From UHGV virus genome UHGV-0121619: a stretch of 10,766 bases of DNA, one strand, 5' to 3'. Below are positions 307 to 9,722 of this stretch, piece by piece (the stretch's first letter is position 1; each line of letters opens with the position of its first letter). A program made the translations under genes and the position numbers. The stretch comes from a virus. Below the pieces are notes generated by a model. The model saw nothing but the letters and a program-made list of their open reading frames with translations. It was not told where the DNA came from and searched no databases.

Positions 307-690
307 CTAGAAGGGGATTGAATCGTCGTATTCAGGATGATTTTGATGATTGCTACTTTGCTGCTGTTGGCTGTTTCCTGAAGTTGCAAATCCAATCTTT
401 GCATTCAGTAATTCAAGAGTGATTGATTGACCATTTTGCCCCTGATAAACATCTACCCTGATGTTTTCTCCGGTAATTTCCACAATGCCACCTTCAACAA
501 GAACACTACGGTAGTAATCCGCTTGCGCTCCCGGCTTGGCAAATACAACGGCGCTGTAGTTTGTCCATTCTTTCTTTTTTGTCTGGCGATCGTAATACTG
601 AACGCCAGCACGGATGTTGAATCCGATATTTTCCCCGGCCTGAAACTCTCTTGCGGGCTTGTTTAGTCTTACAGTAATCGAATGTGCCAT
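307..690 (-). CDS. ssb: phage single-stranded DNA-binding protein (SSB-like)
   Basis: 127-aa ORF with acidic C-terminal tail ...PEYDDSIPF resembling the DDDIPF tip of bacterial SSB; Gly/Gln-rich linker before the tail; start codon overlaps erf stop (TAATG at 688-692). Confidence 0.7.
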   Translation of the reverse strand: MAHSITVRLNKPAREFQAGENIGFNIRAGVQYYDRQTKKKEWTNYSAVVFAKPGAQADYYRSVLVEGGIVEITGENIRVDVYQGQNGQSITLELLNAKIGFATSGNSQQQQSSNHQNHPEYDDSIPF

Positions 691-1295
691 TAAGCAGCAG
701 CTCCTTCTAATTCGTCTCGTCTGATGTTGTAAACGTCCTGCGCTTTGTGCTGCTCAGGTGTGCCTTCGAGCATCTTCCACGCTTTGGCGAACGCCTGTTT
801 AAGCTCTTCTACGGTGTTTTTCTGCATTGCTGCGTCAGTGAATGCTTTTAGAACCTGTTCAGGTGTAGGTGATGGTTTTGATTGCTTTGCTGCTGCGTTC
901 TGTTGATGTTTATGCTCGTCTGTATCTGCATCTTTCGCATCATCAATGCCGAACAAACCATTGAGGCAATACTTGCGTGCATAAGAGCTTGTAGCTCCCG
1001 TAACTTGTGCAGAATCCATTCCTTTCTTGCTTTCTTCCTCTCGTGCAAGAGCGGTTGCCGTATGACTGTTTTCGCCATCGGTAATAGTTGCCGTGGCTTT
1101 CACGTAATACCGATCACCAATCAACACAACTTCATCGCTGATTGATAAAAACAGACCATTCAGTAACGGCTTAACGCCTTCAAGAATGTCTTCGCAGCTT
1201 CTGTATTTATATTTGCCGAATGAGTTGTACTGATTCTTTGGCGCGTTCAGATTCTCCTGAATAGCTGCCAGTCTTGCGTAAAATTCTTTGCTCAT
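690..1295 (-). CDS. erf: Erf-type single-strand annealing recombinase (P22 Erf-like)
   Basis: 201 aa from ATG 1293-1295 (ORF track start at 1325 is an upstream in-frame Met); sequence MSKEFYARLAAIQENLNAPKNQYNSFGKYKYRSCEDILEGVKPLL... recalled as very close to phage P22 Erf. Confidence 0.85.
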   Translation of the reverse strand: MSKEFYARLAAIQENLNAPKNQYNSFGKYKYRSCEDILEGVKPLLNGLFLSISDEVVLIGDRYYVKATATITDGENSHTATALAREEESKKGMDSAQVTGATSSYARKYCLNGLFGIDDAKDADTDEHKHQQNAAAKQSKPSPTPEQVLKAFTDAAMQKNTVEELKQAFAKAWKMLEGTPEQHKAQDVYNIRRDELEGAAA

Positions 1296-1396
1296 ATGAT
1301 TGTTCTCAGAATGGACAAGGCCCAAGGAAATAACGCTGATTTAATACTTCGACTCGGGACAAATTAAGGCATACCCGCATTCCTTCGCGGTCGCCA

Positions 1397-1704: not shown

Positions 1705-1823
1705 AACGCCTCCAGTTGTTTCTTTGCTGCTCTGATTAATTGTTTAACTCGGCGTGATAATTCAGATTCGTGCGGGTAGAAAGCGGACATGACGCCGCTA
1801 CCCGCTAAAATATATTCATTCAT
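1689..1823 (-). CDS. cIII: cIII-like protein (FtsH/HflB inhibitor family)
   Basis: 44-aa ORF MNEYILAGSGVMSAFYPHESELSRRVKQLIRAAKKQLEALCAMK; N-terminus and central amphipathic region align with recalled lambda CIII (MQYAIAGWPVAGCPSESLLERITRKLRDGWKRLIDIL); start ATG overlaps HNH stop (TAATG at 1821-1825). Confidence 0.6.
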   Translation of the reverse strand: MNEYILAGSGVMSAFYPHESELSRRVKQLIRAAKKQLEALCAMK

Positions 1824-2335
1824 TATTTGCTCCTGTAGAATTCGCCGTGATGCTTTCTGGCAAAGTCGCAGTAAGCTTTTTTGGCATCTTCTAATTCATT
1901 AAAGTACCCTAGATGTTTTTTCTTCCCGTTTAATTTCCCATAGGCAGCCCACTTTCTACTTTCCTTCTTCCATGTGACTCCTTTGCAACCTGATTTGTTG
2001 AGGGTATTTATTTTACTATTCATTGAATTCTGTGAGTAAGTTGCAAGCCTCAGATTGCAAATTCTGTTATCTGTCTTTATGCCATTTATATGGTCGATAA
2101 TACCTTCAGGCTCAACACCGAAAGTGATAATCCATGCAAGTCTATGTGCAGCATAGTGTCTTCCGTTAATGAAAATCCTTAAGTAGCCGCTTGTTGTTAT
2201 TGTTCCGGCAGTTCCACCTATCTTTCTTGCTCCATAAGATTTTAGCCATGTGAACTCACCAGAAATAGGGTTATATTTGACAACATTATTAATCTCACTT
2301 AGGGAAATTAATTCAAGAATCTTTATAAATGCCAT
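1823..2335 (-). CDS. HNH homing endonuclease with C-terminal AP2-like DNA-binding domain
   Basis: Likely start ATG 2333-2335 (MAFIKILE..., AGGA RBS upstream; ORF track start at 2350 is TTG). HNH motif region DHINGIKTDNRICNLRLATYSQNSMN and AP2-like segment GVTWKKESRKWAAYGKLNGKKKHLGYFNELEDAKKAY. Confidence 0.8.
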   Translation of the reverse strand: MAFIKILELISLSEINNVVKYNPISGEFTWLKSYGARKIGGTAGTITTSGYLRIFINGRHYAAHRLAWIITFGVEPEGIIDHINGIKTDNRICNLRLATYSQNSMNSKINTLNKSGCKGVTWKKESRKWAAYGKLNGKKKHLGYFNELEDAKKAYCDFARKHHGEFYRSK

Positions 2336-2419
2336 TTTATATCCTATCAACTGCGTTCATTAATCAGCGTTTACGCTCATGAATAAACACCTCTCGTGAA
2401 GCGTTATTGGTATGCATAT

Positions 2420-2549: not shown

Positions 2550-2876
2550 CTACATAATCATTCCGGTTATTATTACCATTTCAATATCGCTATCTTTCAT
2601 AATGATTGGAGTTGAGTTATCAACTTTACTTTTACTCCATTTTCCTGCATCAGTTTTTACCGCTCCACAATAAGAAAGCCAATCATCATCACAATGTTCT
2701 GGATCACTAATTCTGACAAGAACACGTGATAGTGCTTTTTCGATACTTTCATCACAATTAGCATTTGTGTAATTGCCGTGAGACAATTTCAAATCGTTAA
2801 CTTCATCTTCATTGGCATCAAAAATATAGATTTCAGTCGACTCTGGAACATTTTCATAAACCATTAAAACTTTCAT
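2550..2876 (-). CDS. hypothetical acidic protein (108 aa), early-left accessory gene
   Basis: Complete ORF MKVLMVYENVPESTEIYIFDANEDEVNDLKLSHGNYTNANCDES...; about 21 Asp/Glu vs about 10 Lys/Arg; no recognisable family. Confidence 0.5.
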   Translation of the reverse strand: MKVLMVYENVPESTEIYIFDANEDEVNDLKLSHGNYTNANCDESIEKALSRVLVRISDPEHCDDDWLSYCGAVKTDAGKWSKSKVDNSTPIIMKDSDIEMVIITGMIM

Positions 2877-2969: not shown

Positions 2970-3179
2970 TCAATCGTAATAAGCTGGAATTGATTTTCCG
3001 CGTTGCTTCTGGCGGCCTGAGCAGGTCACACCCATTTCACTGCGTGGCTTGCGGTAGTAAAGATTGTGCCTGTCTTTTAACCACATCAGGCTCGGTGGTT
3101 CTCGTGTACCCCTACAGCGAGAAATCGGATAAACTCTATTCACCCCTACAGAGAGCAAAAGAGAAACGCCGATGAACAA
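2970..3179 (-). pseudogene. remnant resembling the C-terminal region of lambda-type antiterminator N
   Basis: Last about 30 codons translate to KDRHNLYYRKPRSEMGVTCSGRQKQRGKSIPAYYD, closely matching recalled lambda N C-terminus (ERKNQRTWYSKPGERGITCSGRQKIKGKSIPLI); upstream part of the ORF lacks an Arg-rich RNA-binding motif; a complete P22-type N is present at 3770-4078. Confidence 0.35.
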
Positions 3180-3753
3180 CTCATGGTGGCAGGAACTAAT
3201 GCATTTTTTCCTGCAAGGAATGACACTTAAACAGTTGATTCATATGCTAATCATCCTGATCATATTGATTATTGTTATGCCGGTAAGCGTAAAAGAATGG
3301 ATAAACCTGCATAATCCAGAAATCCTTCCTCATTATTGGATGTATTACATCCTGTTGTTCTGCGTTAGCTATGTGCTTAACGGTGTTGTTAATTCCGCTT
3401 ATCACGCTGTGACTGAAAGAATTGAGGTATCCGCTGCTCAGAAGCGCAAATCTAAAGAAGAAAAATATGTGCAAGATTTGTTTGATTCGTTAACTCTTGG
3501 AGAAAGAGCGTATTTGGCATTCGCTGTAGCCGCGAATAACCAGCTAAAGACAGAAAAGGGAAGCCCCGAAGCAATCTCATTGCTCGAAAAAGGGCTTCTT
3601 ATTCGGATACCTTCTGCTACTGGATATCCTGAAATCGACCGTTTTGTTATCCCGGAACGCTATAGAAATGAGTGCTACATTAGGTTTGCTGGGAAGAAAG
3701 ACAGTCTTATGGATGAACTTATCGCTCAGGATAAGCATGGCAAAAACAAGTAA
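3172..3753 (+). CDS. sieB: SieB-like superinfection exclusion membrane protein
   Basis: 193-aa ORF with two N-terminal hydrophobic helices (LIHMLIILIILIIVMPVSV, HYWMYYILLFCVSYVLNGVV); convergent and adjacent to N as sieB is in lambda/P22. Family call from architecture and position, not alignment. Confidence 0.6.
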   Translation: MNNSWWQELMHFFLQGMTLKQLIHMLIILIILIIVMPVSVKEWINLHNPEILPHYWMYYILLFCVSYVLNGVVNSAYHAVTERIEVSAAQKRKSKEEKYVQDLFDSLTLGERAYLAFAVAANNQLKTEKGSPEAISLLEKGLLIRIPSATGYPEIDRFVIPERYRNECYIRFAGKKDSLMDELIAQDKHGKNK

Positions 3754-3769
3754 TTAGCAAATGATTTTA

Positions 3770-4078
3770 TCATCTCGCCGTCAGTTGTTTTGATTTCCGG
3801 TAGCCTGCCGCGTAAATGGCTACGTTTGGCAGGCAAATACTTCCACTGCATTCATCTGCCTTCTTGCAGCGAAGGCTTCCGAGTGATATTGCTTTTTCAG
3901 AAAGGCTTAAACGCTTTCTTGGGGCTTCCTGAACAGGTTCCTCACTGTCTGTGCCGAAGATAGAATCAATGATGTTGCAGATGGCATCACGCTCGATAGC
4001 CAGCTTTCTGCGCCGCTCATGACGGCGAGTTTTGGCATTTCCTGCAAATGTTGATTTCCCGTACACGATTACCGTCAT
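3770..4078 (-). CDS. N: antitermination protein N, P22 gene 24 type
   Basis: 102 aa from ATG 4076-4078 (MTVIVYGKSTFAGNAKTRRHERRRKLAIERD...), Arg-rich motif near N-terminus as in P22 gp24; AGGA RBS upstream; ORF track start at 4162 is an upstream in-frame Met. Confidence 0.85.
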   Translation of the reverse strand: MTVIVYGKSTFAGNAKTRRHERRRKLAIERDAICNIIDSIFGTDSEEPVQEAPRKRLSLSEKAISLGSLRCKKADECSGSICLPNVAIYAAGYRKSKQLTAR

Positions 4079-4197
4079 GATGTTTTCCTCATGTGAAATG
4101 GCTTTGGTGGTGATGCGCCAGATGCTGATCTTCTGGTTGCTGTCGTTGCAGCTGCAATTCACATCACCGCCAAACCCATCTCGTTTGGTATCTGTTT

Positions 4198-4232: not shown

Positions 4233-4269
4233 TGCCAATCTGTTCCGTTTGGCTACCAGCGTCCTGCTG

Positions 4270-4340
4270 ATGTGTTTAGTATCACCGCTAGTGGTATGCG
4301 TGTCAACACCGCCAGAGATAATTTATCACCGCAGATGGTT
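4270..4340 (-). promoter_or_regulatory. OL1-OL2-OL3 operators with pL promoter (lambda-type)
   Basis: TATCACCGCTAGTGGTA (4280-4296), CAACACCGCCAGAGATA (4304-4320), TATCACCGCAGATGGTT (4324-4340); on minus strand -35 TTGACA (4301-4306) and -10 GATACT (4278-4283), 17-bp spacer. Confidence 0.85.
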
Positions 4341-4482
4341 ATATGTATGTTTTTTATATAGATTTATTTTTTGCCGGGGTGTGTTGCTGTGGTGGTGTGA
4401 TCGAGAGATCAGAATTGCGATGTTTAGTGAGTTGTATCTATTTATTTTTCAATAAATACAATTGGTTAATGTGTTTTTAGGT

Positions 4483-4494
4483 GGGGGGGGGGGG
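4483..4494. repeat. homopolymeric G12 tract
   Basis: Twelve consecutive G at 4483-4494, directly visible; non-coding spacer between OL3 and the bidirectional terminator. Confidence 0.9.
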
Positions 4495-4512
4495 ATCGAG
4501 AGGCAAAGAAAA

Positions 4513-4540
4513 CCCGGCGCTGAGGCCGGGTGGGGTTTTG
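4513..4540. terminator. bidirectional intrinsic terminator ending the cI operon (tIMM-like)
   Basis: Stem CCCGGC (4513-4518) / loop GCTGAG / GCCGGG (4525-4530); plus strand followed by TGGGGTTTTGTT, minus strand followed by GTTTTCTTTGCC; begins 11 nt after the stop of the 56-aa gene. Confidence 0.65.
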
Positions 4541-4711
4541 TTATTGGTGCATTTGGCAGAGTGTAGTATCAGGTCCATAAGCCAAAGTAAAAACAGGCTT
4601 GTTGATCAATCCGTTGTTCTTTAATGATTGAATCATTTTACCTTGCTCGCTAACTTTTTGCTTGCTAAGTATTTCTGCCACTTGCTGTGTCAGTGATTTG
4701 TCTTTGCTCAT
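4541..4711 (-). CDS. hypothetical 56-aa protein, translationally coupled to upstream peptidase-like gene
   Basis: ATG 4709-4711 immediately follows peptidase stop TAA 4712-4714 (TAAATG); translation MSKDKSLTQQVAEILSKQKVSEQGKMIQSLKNNGLINKPVFTLAYGPDTTLCQMHQ; stop 4541-4543; not in ORF track (below size cutoff). Confidence 0.5.
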   Translation of the reverse strand: MSKDKSLTQQVAEILSKQKVSEQGKMIQSLKNNGLINKPVFTLAYGPDTTLCQMHQ

Positions 4712-5614
4712 TTATGACTCACTTTGTTCTGAGAATGGGAATGAAGACAGAACAAGAACCTGTCGATTTGTCTTATACATGTATTCATTAATGACGTTGT
4801 GCAGATTTTTTAACGCCATGCTAAAATCTTTGTCGTATGTAAAGTCTTCTACTTTAATTCTTAAGTCATTGATAAGAGTATTTATTCCTATCGTTCTTCC
4901 GTGAGAATGCCACTTTCCGTTGTCACTAAGAGCGGTAGCGATCATTTTAGCTCTCGCTTCTTTTTCCCTCTTGGAAACTAGCTTTCCTCGTTTTGTGTTA
5001 CCTTGATGAACCGTCCACTCTCTGAATTTATACTCTACAAGCCACTTCTTAAGCAAGTCTATTGATAGCTCTCTGGCTTGCTCGTATCTCCTTAAGTGCG
5101 CAAGATCTAACTGACTAAGCATCATTAGTTCAGCTTGGGTAATGGTTCCTTCTCTGGATTTAGTAATCATTTCTTCAACTTTATCAAGGTATCCCAAAGC
5201 AGGAACCCATTTACCGTCAGAGGATTGCACTTGAGGGTCAATGGGGCCTAATGAAGAAGCATAGTTCATGTAAATTTTATCTCCAGACATACACCATATT
5301 GTGCCTGCCGACATGGCCATATCTGGAATGATAAAATATACCTCTTGATAGAAATGCCTTGTAATTTCTACCATTTTTTCCACAGACTCAACAGAGCCAC
5401 CATTTGTATTGAGTATAATAACTAGAAATCTATTGGTACGACTGTTAGCCATCTCCCCAATAGCCTCAAGTTTTGGTTGGTAAACTTCTTTTGACCATGG
5501 AAAGATACCACCGTAGTACGCTATGACGTCGCAGCTTGGGAAAAAGTTATTTTTAAATTGCTCTAACTGCCAAGAAATGTATGTTTCTAGTGTTGAATCA
5601 AGATTTTGGCTCAT
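4712..5614 (-). CDS. ClpP/S49-fold serine peptidase-like protein in the rexAB position (candidate exclusion/defence gene)
   Basis: 300-aa ORF; block LVIILNTNGGSVESVEKMVEITRHF...YFIIPDMAMSAGTIWCMSGDKIYMNYASSLGPIDPQV resembles the GG...(A)ASGG nucleophile region of SppA/ClpP-fold peptidases (putative Ser102 in AMSAG); lies directly downstream of cI on the same strand. Confidence 0.75.
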   Translation of the reverse strand: MSQNLDSTLETYISWQLEQFKNNFFPSCDVIAYYGGIFPWSKEVYQPKLEAIGEMANSRTNRFLVIILNTNGGSVESVEKMVEITRHFYQEVYFIIPDMAMSAGTIWCMSGDKIYMNYASSLGPIDPQVQSSDGKWVPALGYLDKVEEMITKSREGTITQAELMMLSQLDLAHLRRYEQARELSIDLLKKWLVEYKFREWTVHQGNTKRGKLVSKREKEARAKMIATALSDNGKWHSHGRTIGINTLINDLRIKVEDFTYDKDFSMALKNLHNVINEYMYKTNRQVLVLSSFPFSEQSES

Positions 5615-5686
5615 GTGATACCTTGCTATATCAACAATTTACAATAACATGTTGCACTATCGGTTTTTTATTAATCACAATTGGAA

Positions 5687-6403
<717 letters not shown>

Positions 6404-6410
6404 TTAAATC

Positions 6411-6476
6411 TATCACCGCAAGGGATAAATATCTAACACCGTGCGTGTTGACTATTTTACCTCTAGCGGTGATAAT
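6411..6476. promoter_or_regulatory. OR3-OR2-OR1 operators with divergent pRM and pR (lambda-type)
   Basis: TATCACCGCAAGGGATA (6411-6427), TAACACCGTGCGTGTTG (6434-6450), TACCTCTAGCGGTGATA (6458-6474); pR -35 TTGACT (6448-6453) and -10 GATAAT (6471-6476); pRM TAGATA/TAGATT on minus strand. Confidence 0.9.
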
Positions 6477-6500
6477 GATTGCATGTACTAAGGAGGTTGT

Positions 6501-6701
6501 ATGGAACAACGCATAACCCTGAAAGATTATGCAATGCGCTTTGGTCAAACCAAGACGGCTAAAGATCTCGGCGTATATCAAAGCGCGATCAACAAGGCCA
6601 TTCATGCAGGCCGAAATATTTTTTTAACTATAAACGCTGATGGAAGCGTTTATGCGGAAGAAATAAAGCCCTTCCCAAGCAACAAAAAAACAACTGCATA
6701 A
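6501..6701 (+). CDS. cro: Cro repressor, lambda type
   Basis: 66-aa [41 protein letters not shown]... recalled as near-identical to lambda Cro; GGAGG RBS upstream. Confidence 0.95.
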
Positions 6702-6707
6702 GTAACA

Positions 6708-6742
6708 CCGCTCTTTATCAATCTGCACCGCCGACAACGCGG
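6708..6742 (+). promoter_or_regulatory. nutR (boxA + boxB), P22-type
   Basis: CGCTCTTTA (6708-6716) - 9 nt - ACCGCCGACAACGCGGT (6726-6742, 5-bp stem hairpin) immediately downstream of cro. Confidence 0.7.
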
Positions 6743-7401: not shown

Positions 7402-8349
7402 ATGAGCAATACAGCAAAAATCTACGATTTCAGCGCCGCACACGAGCGCAGGAGCAACAGGATGGAGAACCAGAAAACTGGTTACATTCCGTTGTACCGG
7501 AGCATTCTGAAACAGTCATGGGCGAAAGATGTTTATCTTCGCACCCTGTGGGAAAACCTTCTCCTGAATGCCGCCAGAAAGCCATACAAAGCGAATTTCA
7601 AAGGTCATGAATGGCATCTGCAACCCGGTCAACTGGTTGTGACAGCAGCTGATTTAGGTCTTCAGTTATGCGACAGGCATGGCAAGCCGGCAAGCCGTGA
7701 TCAGGTTGAGCGGATGCTTCAGGTTTTTGTGAAAGAGGGGATGATCTCCATTGATGGAGAGAAGCAAAAAGGTCGTGTGATAACCATCACAAATTACCAT
7801 GAATATGCTCAAAAAATGGACAATTTACCCGCACATGAAGCCGCACAAACAACCGCACATGATGCCGCACATGACGAAGCCAGTAATGGCGCGGCTTTCA
7901 GAGTACATGCCGCACATGAAAGCGCACATGAAGCCGCACAAACAACCGCACATCATGAACAAGAAGGTATTAACAAGAATATAAATAATGCCCCCCTACC
8001 CCCCAATGGGGGCGGCGATGGGCAGGTTAAACCTGAACGTCGCAAGGCAGAACGAATCGACTACGAATCCTTCCTGAACGCCTACAACACCGAAGTCGGT
8101 GACAGACTGCCACACGCTGTTGCGGTCAACGAGAAACGCAAACGCCGCCTGAAGAAAATCATCCCGCAACTGAAAACGCCAAACGTGGACGGTTTCAGAG
8201 CGTATGTCAGGGCGTTTGTGCATCAGGCAAAGCCGTTTTACTTCGGAGACAACGACACGGGCTGGACGGCAGATTTTGATTACCTGCTGAGGGAAGATTC
8301 GTTAACGGGAGTTCGGGAAGGGAAGTTTGCAGACAGGGGGATTGCATGA
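7402..8349 (+). CDS. replication initiator (lambda O / P22 gp18-like) with internal origin
   Basis: 315-aa ORF; N-terminus [10 protein letters not shown] resembles lambda O MTNTAKILNF; contains tandem iterons, AT-rich tract and Pro/Gly linker mid-gene; stop overlaps helicase start (ATGA at 8346-8349). Confidence 0.8.
7829..7957. repeat. origin-like iteron array: two clusters of four tandem 12-bp repeats (CCGCACATGAnG / CCGCACAAACAA)
   Basis: Units at 7829, 7841, 7853, 7865 and at 7910, 7922, 7934, 7946; followed by AT-rich 7958-7990 and C6-TA-C6-AAT-G5 hairpin-prone segment 7991-8013. Confidence 0.75.
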
Positions 8350-9722
8350 GACAGGATATCGAAGCGAGCGTTATCGGTGGCCTGCTGATTGGTGGATTAA
8401 CACCGACTGCCAGTGACGTTCTGGCAACGCTTGAGCCGGAAGCGTTTTCAATTCCGCTCTACCGGAAAGCCTTCGAGGTTATCCGCAAGCAGGCGAGGAA
8501 CAGAAACCTAATCGACGCGCTGATGGTTGCCGAGGCGTGCGGAGAGGAGCATTTCACGTCAATCCTGATGACCAGTAAGAACTGCCCGAGTGCCGCAAAC
8601 CTGAAGGGATATGCCGGAATGGTCGCGGATAACTATCACCGCCGTCTGGTGCTGGAAATCATGGATGAAATGCGTGAACCAATTCAGAGCGGAACCATCG
8701 ATACATCGAGTCAGGCGATGGACGAGCTTGTAAAGCGTCTCTCAGCCATCAGAAAGCCCCGTGACGAGGTTAAACCTGTACGGTTAGGGGAAATCATCAC
8801 TGACTACACTGACACGCTTGACAGGCGTCTGAGGAACGGAGAAGAGTCAGATACCCTGAAGACCGGAATCGAAGAACTTGATGCCATCACCGGAGGGATG
8901 AACGCAGAAGACCTGGTGATAATCGCTGCTCGTCCTGGTATGGGGAAAACCGAACTGGCGCTGAAGATTGCCGAAGGCGTTGCAAGCCGCGTTATTCCTG
9001 GTTCTGACGTCCGGCGCGGGGTATTGATTTTCTCAATGGAAATGAGCGCATTGCAGATTGCAGAGCGAAGCATCGCCAACGCCGGGAGGATGTCGGTTAG
9101 CGTGCTGCGAAATCCTGCATCGATGGATGACGAAGGCTGGGCGCGTGTTGCTAACGGCATGAGTCAGCTTGCAGATTTGGATGTATGGGTAGTCGATGCC
9201 TCGCGGTTATCGGTCGAAGAAATACGCTCAATCGCAGAACGGCACAAACAGGAAAATCCAAACCTCTCACTCATCATGGCGGATTATCTTGGCCTGATTG
9301 AGAAGCCGAAAGCAGACCGCAACGACCTCGCAATTGCTCACATCTCCGGAAGCCTGAAGGCGATGGCGAAAGACCTGAAAACGCCTGTTATCTCCCTGAG
9401 TCAGCTTTCGCGCGATGTTGAGAAGCGACCAAACAAACGCCCGACAAACGCAGATTTGCGTGATTCAGGAAGCATTGAACAGGACGCAGACTCAATCATC
9501 ATGCTCTATCGGGAAGCGGTATATGACGAGAACAGTAGCGCCGCACCATTTGCTGAAATCATTGTGACAAAAAACCGTTTTGGCTCGCTTGGTACGGTTT
9601 ACCAGCGGTTCTGCAACGGACACTTTGTTGCATGTGACCAGGATGAAGCCAGACAGATTTGCACAGCATCAAATGCGCCCGCTGCGCGTGGCAGACGATA
9701 TGCACAAGGGGCTGACGTATGA
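8346..9722 (+). CDS. DnaB-like replicative helicase (P22 gene 12 type)
   Basis: 458-aa ORF; Walker [13 protein letters not shown], DnaB-like N-terminal domain and C-terminal RecA-like core ([12 protein letters not shown]..., [11 protein letters not shown]). Confidence 0.9.

Follow-up and report, generated by a model that had tools for sequence, protein, structure and literature searches.

What occupies the place of rexA-rexB in this lambdoid prophage, and what could it do for the lysogen? The interval between cI and OL is the classic home of prophage-encoded exclusion, with rexAB as the example. We analysed a 10,766-nucleotide stretch of the viral genome UHGV-0121619, hereafter the window, which corresponds to a lambdoid prophage early region. 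Read from the right on the minus strand, it carries cI, a 300-aa open reading frame (ORF), a 56-aa ORF, a terminator, OL/pL and N. A first-pass annotation of the sequence had taken the two ORFs for a cassette that replaces rexAB and encodes a ClpP/S49-type protease with a coupled small partner.

Alignment to lambda places the cassette in the rexAB slot. By blastn against lambda 33000–40500, homology ends at window position 4531 and restarts at 5691. The left flank, 4259–4531, corresponds to lambda 35570–35825 (OL/pL up to the rexB stop), and the right flank, 5691–6715, to lambda 37231–38255 (the cI stop through cro). Between them, a cargo segment of 1159 bp (4532–5690) stands in place of the 1405 bp that hold rexA-rexB in lambda. 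This swap between homologous flanks bears out the replacement described by the first-pass annotation, whose coordinates, Ser102 codon (5309–5311) and TAAATG gene junction were all correct. The DNA between the flanking blocks has no blastn homology to rexA or rexB, and its domain content is unrelated to theirs. Its GC content is 38% against 45% for the window, and this low value fits acquired DNA. The slot had also been called a variable cargo site, and other lambda-immunity phages agree: it holds rexAB in lambda, SfI and ev243, hicAB in mEp234 and HK106, an NYN-domain gene in ev099, and unnamed genes in HK542, HK244, CL707 and PhiR5_2.

The cassette is probably expressed in the lysogen from the cI operon, as rexAB is. 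Upstream lies a lambda-type cI repressor gene (5687–6400, minus strand; Peptidase_S24 and HTH_3 domains) with 97% DNA identity to lambda cI. Its stop codon is separated from the protease start by a 72-nt leader (5615–5686, minus strand) that is homologous to the leaders of cassettes behind other cI alleles. The 300-aa ORF (4712–5614, minus strand) and the 56-aa ORF (4541–4711, minus strand) follow with zero spacer, the TAA of the first abutting the ATG of the second. The cI operon then ends at a bidirectional intrinsic terminator (4512–4531) with a 7-bp stem, six GC pairs and T-runs on both strands. This terminator begins 9 nt past the stop of the 56-aa ORF, not 11 nt as first annotated, and it is lambda's own, kept within the block homologous to lambda 35570–35825. 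No consensus promoter is present on the coding strand within the cassette or the leader. Because the cassette lacks its own consensus promoter and a terminator follows the small gene, co-transcription with cI is the simplest reading. The far edge of the slot is the pL promoter (4278–4306, minus strand; TTGACA, 17 nt, GATACT), identified by homology to lambda OL/pL, and the N gene reads on the minus strand at 3770–4162.

Two small sequence features lie beside the coding region. The leader contains a perfect 8-bp palindrome, AACATGTT, at 5646–5653, which is a candidate operator or processing site. Between the terminator and OL, a C12 homopolymer on the minus strand (G12 on the plus strand) at 4483–4494 is a possible site of slippage or assembly error.

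Profile searches, a structure model and conservation indicate that the 300-aa protein works as a soluble serine protease and belongs to a divergent SDH/S49-like subfamily. A profile-HMM search, named beforehand as a check on the proposed fold, found PF01972 (SDH_protease) in Pfam at 41.0 bits, above the gathering threshold of 31.3, over profile positions 94–216 of 286; NfeD1b_N and CLP_protease matched more weakly. The NCBIfam equivalog model NF047768 (Clp_like_SDH) reached 54.5 bits against a cut-off of 250 and covered core residues 60–149 only. With a score so far under that cut-off, the protein belongs to a divergent subfamily and is not a canonical SDH equivalog. It matches PHROG 11747 (function unknown) end to end (E 2e-99). 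The structure predicted from a 45-sequence alignment (pLDDT 90.3, pTM 0.87) found Bacillus subtilis SppA as its best solved match in Foldseek (E 4e-6), with ClpP next. These results support a ClpP/crotonase-type fold, in line with the earlier assignment.

Conserved residues outline a plausible active site. The predicted nucleophile is Ser102 (codon 5309–5311, minus strand), which had already been picked out in the first reading. In a profile search of PDB sequences its block, A-M-S102-A-G-T, aligns with S-A-S97-A-G-T of PH1510-N, whose Ser97 is the catalytic nucleophile. Across 45 sequences S102, K145, E79, E162, S237, H238, R240 and D257 are invariant, and the set K145, D126, D144, H238 and D257 is invariant or nearly so. 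Lys145 (codon 5180–5182, minus strand; motif G-Y-L-D-K) sits 43 residues past Ser102, at the start of predicted helix 139–154. This spacing resembles that between Ser and Lys in S49 enzymes, 41 residues in PH1510. Unlike ClpP, the protein has no histidine about 25 residues after the serine. From conservation and position, Lys145 is the likeliest general base, which would make a Ser-Lys dyad. The helical C-terminal half, about 150 residues peculiar to this subfamily, holds an invariant WHSHGR motif that could instead provide a catalytic histidine.

The protease is probably active and cytoplasmic. Sequence prediction finds no membrane segment or signal peptide in it, and in lacking a membrane anchor it differs from the SppA/NfeD enzymes, PH1510-N included. 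Compared with a 94%-identical copy, the gene has a dN/dS of 0.04, a sign of strong purifying selection; this and the residues invariant in 45 sequences argue for a working enzyme. The first-pass annotation had also suggested phage morphogenetic or head proteins as substrates. The one pointer to this is a fold likeness to prohead proteases (PHROG 53, E 1e-6), and we do not retain it.

The 56-aa partner appears to combine a helix with a conserved, flexible tail. It is a basic protein (pI 9.3) that matches PHROG 28875 (function unknown; E 3e-30), has no membrane segment or signal peptide, and is encoded by a gene under purifying selection. Its AlphaFold2 (AF2) model is one long helix, residues 7–32, followed by a low-confidence tail that is, by this model, disordered. 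The best-conserved stretch of the protein in the partner alignment lies within the tail, at residues 34–47 (G-L-I-N-K-P-V-F-T-L-A-Y-G-P; codons 4571–4612, minus strand). Thirty aligned partners from different genera all keep Gly34, and G-hydrophobic-x-x-P-x-F/Y-x-L recurs among them as a pattern. A profile built from the small proteins finds additional members in marine and rhizobial genomes. We rejected an ArgR DNA-binding domain match (E 0.005), which falls far under the cut-off and disagrees with the single-helix model.

Protease and partner travel together. The protease family comprises 4334 database clusters at E ≤ 0.001, and from IMG/VR we sampled 64 complete loci at 44% identity or more, which yielded 44 distinct proteases. 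The coupling to a small ORF seen in the window proved general: all 44 are followed on the same strand by an ORF of 53–82 aa. The starts of these partner ORFs range from 31 nt ahead of the protease stop to 54 nt beyond it, and the median gap is 2 nt. The small proteins of different relatives are homologous, and the C-terminal motif G-hydrophobic-x-x-P-x-F/Y is common among them. An identical two-gene architecture occurs in six more genomic contexts: a Klebsiella Rac-like prophage; the Shewanella chromosome, between purC and ompA-like genes; a PIN/MazE/PIN_3/Fic cluster; a prophage remnant; a site adjoining trpC; and an island beside groEL with an integrase, a resolvase and a type IIG restriction-modification system. 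Because the coupled architecture recurs in 44 relatives and six further contexts, the two genes behave as a functional unit that moves as one. Comparative sequence evidence thus identifies the pair as a self-contained, horizontally mobile two-gene module. Its wide distribution, in many prophage repressor operons and also outside prophages, had been overlooked by the earlier reading.

Pairing may also reach past the subfamily analysed here. In a group of IMG/VR loci (L086–L092) whose proteases are 27–28% identical, an overlapping 69-aa ORF lies downstream.

Repressor operons are the usual address of the cassette in prophages. We looked at the gene just upstream in 37 non-redundant viral loci: 20 have an S24/HTH repressor there and 6 a Phage_CI_repr gene. 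E. coli seldom has the cassette: of 5426 complete genomes, 17 contain the protease and 20 some part of the cassette. All E. coli copies that we examined are within lambdoid prophages or the lambdoid part of a 111-kb plasmid, and each follows cI directly or almost so; at least four different cI alleles are represented. In two copies, L003 and L106, a single gene for a small membrane protein comes between cI and the cassette. Copies behind other cI alleles share window positions 4486–5699 or 4407–5714 with our sequence. Besides the leader and the terminator, the shared span takes in a footprint of the 3' end of cI, which shows that the module is exchanged by recombination in the flanks. Among 50,697 phage records there is no close homologue; the sole relatives there are 26–30% identical and occupy cargo-like positions in Shewanella, Gordonia and Porphyromonas phages. 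We also looked for a link with satellite islands: Pfam searches of L040 and other short viral contigs turned up nothing informative.

Individual E. coli copies record the movement of the module. In L003 (7072–7260) and L106, which have a different cI, a non-coding copy of the last lambda-type cI codons, CCTGAAGAGACGTTTGGGTGA, lies ahead of the cassette. There the cassette is also preceded by the small membrane-protein gene and a terminator, an arrangement that is a recombination scar, and hicAB sits just past the shared terminator. The plasmid copy, L002, is on pSM107_MCR (111 kb, named for mcr); there the cassette is part of a full lambdoid early region that also holds cI, cro, cII, O, P and the Red genes. 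This replicon is either a phage-plasmid or a resistance plasmid with an inserted prophage.

Comparison with known systems places the cassette near two of them. Lambda RexAB is an established system for excluding other phages, in which RexB, a membrane protein, is activated by RexA. The cassette shares with rexA-rexB the identical slot, the cI transcription unit, the same terminator, a two-gene make-up and, probably, expression in the lysogen. It is unrelated to them in sequence and fold, and it differs in that its proteins are soluble and one of them is a protease. In composition it recalls a pair, a hypothetical protein and an SDH_sah protease, that Fillol-Salom and colleagues reportedly described in Cell in 2022 on a phage-inducible chromosomal island, with phage protection validated but no mechanism given. 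DefenseFinder lists that system as FS_HP_SDH_sah, in which SDH_sah denotes PF01972. The likeness consists in two adjacent genes, one of them for a PF01972 ClpP-fold protease, on a phage-dependent mobile carrier; the difference lies in the carrier, a phage-inducible chromosomal island there and a prophage repressor operon here. We therefore regard the cassette as the same kind of element as rexAB by position and as FS_HP_SDH_sah by composition.

Searches of E. coli genomes limit how close that second relation can be. DNA probes from three protease subclades recovered only the 17 prophage copies in 5426 complete genomes. This excludes a close island-borne relative in E. coli but leaves room for a distant one, so FS_HP_SDH_sah, if it is from E. 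coli, is not a close relative.

The pairing matches no defence system in PADLOC. Neither protein matches any of the 5027 models of PADLOC-DB 2.0 at E values up to 1. The full-text literature that we searched by protein, domain and system names and by RefSeq accessions does not describe the pair, nor is it mentioned in the DefensePredictor paper or in a domain-centric screen. The earlier statement that the pairing is undescribed thus holds for PADLOC and the literature searched, and it is doubtful in view of FS_HP_SDH_sah. Two aspects appear to be new: a coupled partner that is always present and has a conserved tail motif, and the repeated placement in repressor operons of unrelated prophages. 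We also considered the Tai system (PMC11364771), whose proteins are unrelated to those of the cassette. A nearer parallel in logic is IetAS, a two-gene module of a subtilisin-like serine protease and an ATPase in which a presumed toxic protease is checked by its partner (PMC13069673). Here too a serine protease would be the toxic effector of a two-gene module, restrained by its partner; the protease fold is different, and the partner is a 56-aa helix-plus-tail protein instead of an ATPase.

We favour, at about an even chance, a lysogen-expressed protease effector that is regulated by the small protein and acts against phages by exclusion or abortive infection. The cassette would be co-transcribed with cI from pRM or pRE, with transcription ending at 4512–4531, and its products would be made in the lysogen. 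The 300-aa protein would act in the cytoplasm as a serine protease of the ClpP/SppA/NfeD fold, using Ser102 as nucleophile and most likely Lys145 as general base. The 56-aa protein would be its dedicated partner, a helix with a flexible, conserved C-terminal peptide that may occupy or gate the protease as inhibitor, pseudo-substrate or adaptor. Infection by another phage would free or redirect the protease, which would cleave a phage protein or an essential host protein and so block phage production. The outcome, exclusion or abortive infection, would be functionally analogous to rexAB and to defences of the toxin-antitoxin type.

Genomic setting makes such a role plausible. Placement in repressor operons and in defence or toxin-antitoxin islands, like the obligate pairing, suggests a defence or toxin-antitoxin-like function. 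Counting against it, some copies lie alone between housekeeping genes (in Shewanella and beside trpC), and these positions say nothing of defence. The conserved, disordered partner tail is a natural candidate for the segment that binds the protease groove; the SppA crystal structure 4kwb, in which C-terminal peptides are bound in the active sites, offers an analogy. Regulation poses a constraint of its own. Prophage induction shuts pRM off, so a labile antitoxin would free the protease in the phage's own lytic cycle; a simple labile-antitoxin model therefore needs a specific trigger or a counter-measure.

An alternative that we consider possible and on balance unlikely is an addiction module. 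The unopposed protease would be toxic, the small protein would neutralise it, and the pair would stabilise its host prophage or island without acting directly against phages. The pair has the compact operon and coupled translation of type II toxin-antitoxin systems (TAAATG here; the median gap among 44 relatives is 2 nt). In mEp234 and HK106 the rexAB slot is taken by hicAB, which also adjoins the cassette in L003, and one copy of the pair lies amid PIN/MazE, PIN_3 and Fic genes. Against this, neither protein matches a known toxin or antitoxin family in Pfam or PADLOC, and the small protein is modelled as a single helix without the DNA-binding fold of typical autoregulating type II antitoxins. 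Addiction overlaps our favoured explanation of a regulated anti-phage protease and does not exclude it, because many toxin-antitoxin modules also serve defence.

Decay of the E. coli copies bears on the same alternative, since orphan small genes outlast loss of the protease. Fifteen of the 20 copies are intact. One has an IS3 element within the protease gene, one has a frameshift, and three have lost the protease and retained the small gene; in none has the small gene alone been lost, and the protease never occurs without it. Inactivating events thus hit the protease 5 to 0, a bias that the 5:1 ratio of gene sizes alone predicts with a P of about 0.4. The pattern fits a toxin and its neutraliser, yet it fits gene size equally, and we give it little weight. 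One orphan is in E. coli FHI_NMBU_10 (L004, 5001–5293; also in H44 and H45), where a clean deletion has removed the protease gene and left the 56-aa gene by itself behind cI.

A more specific version of the favoured anti-phage protease joins the two ideas, and in this full form we think it rather unlikely. The cassette would be a novel protease-based toxin-antitoxin or abortive-infection module in which the antitoxin is a decoy whose conserved tail sits in, or is steadily consumed by, the active site of a soluble SppA/ClpP-fold protease. Infection would deplete or displace this decoy and free the protease, and unrelated temperate phages would have taken up the module into their repressor operons time and again as a lysogen-expressed defence.

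A role in lysogeny control is improbable. On this account the protease would act on switch regulators such as repressors, antirepressors, CII or Cro of resident or superinfecting phages. Position speaks for it: the cassette lies right after a repressor gene in 26 of 37 prophage loci, occurs in E. coli solely behind cI genes of several alleles, and moves with a footprint of the cI 3' end. However, a repressor operon is the usual place for lysogen-expressed cargo, as rexAB illustrates, and the pair also occurs with no repressor nearby, in Shewanella, beside trpC and in the restriction-modification island. The upstream repressors are moreover of unrelated types, S24 and non-S24, which makes a common repressor substrate unlikely.

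Least probable is peptide maturation, in which the protease would cut the conserved C-terminal segment from a small precursor to release a signalling or antimicrobial peptide: the motif does sit in a disordered tail, and SppA-type enzymes cleave peptides and can hold C-termini in their active sites (4kwb), but both proteins lack a signal peptide or membrane segment, and no conserved exporter, modification-enzyme or receptor gene lies nearby in Klebsiella, Shewanella or the four further contexts.

The rest of the window is a mosaic of lambda and P22-like parts in its recombination and replication modules. The recombination module (307–1325, minus strand) encodes Erf and an SSB-like protein ending in DDSIPF, not lambda Red. 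Replication genes (7402–9722, plus strand) encode an O-like initiator with a His/Ala-rich repeat and a DnaB-type helicase, not lambda P. A 175-aa ORF at 1823–2350 (minus strand) has HNH_3 and AP2 domains and a PADLOC match to 'homing endonuclease' (E 5e-5), which suggests a free-standing homing endonuclease gene that has entered the pL operon. Beside N, at 3172–3753 (plus strand), lies a homologue of the superinfection-exclusion protein SieB (Pfam SieB, E 1e-25; PHROG 1301, E 2e-123), and the prophage therefore has a second exclusion gene near the cassette. Between the homing endonuclease and sieB, an acidic 108-aa ORF (2550–2876, minus strand) has no Pfam or PADLOC match.

A conserved module of a protease and a mini-protein thus fills the rexAB-equivalent slot in many prophages that are unrelated to one another. 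Even without an antiviral role, its protease would be a widespread one that lysogens probably express. At 1.2 kb the cassette is a well-defined candidate that is easy to clone, and its obvious mutants are S102A, K145A, H238A and a truncation of the partner tail. The SDH_sah-type system has reportedly been validated by phenotype alone. If the cassette is antiviral, it would extend the known mechanisms of defence by a protease effector of the ClpP/SppA fold whose regulator is peptide-like, and it would also give a mechanism for the SDH_sah-type system.
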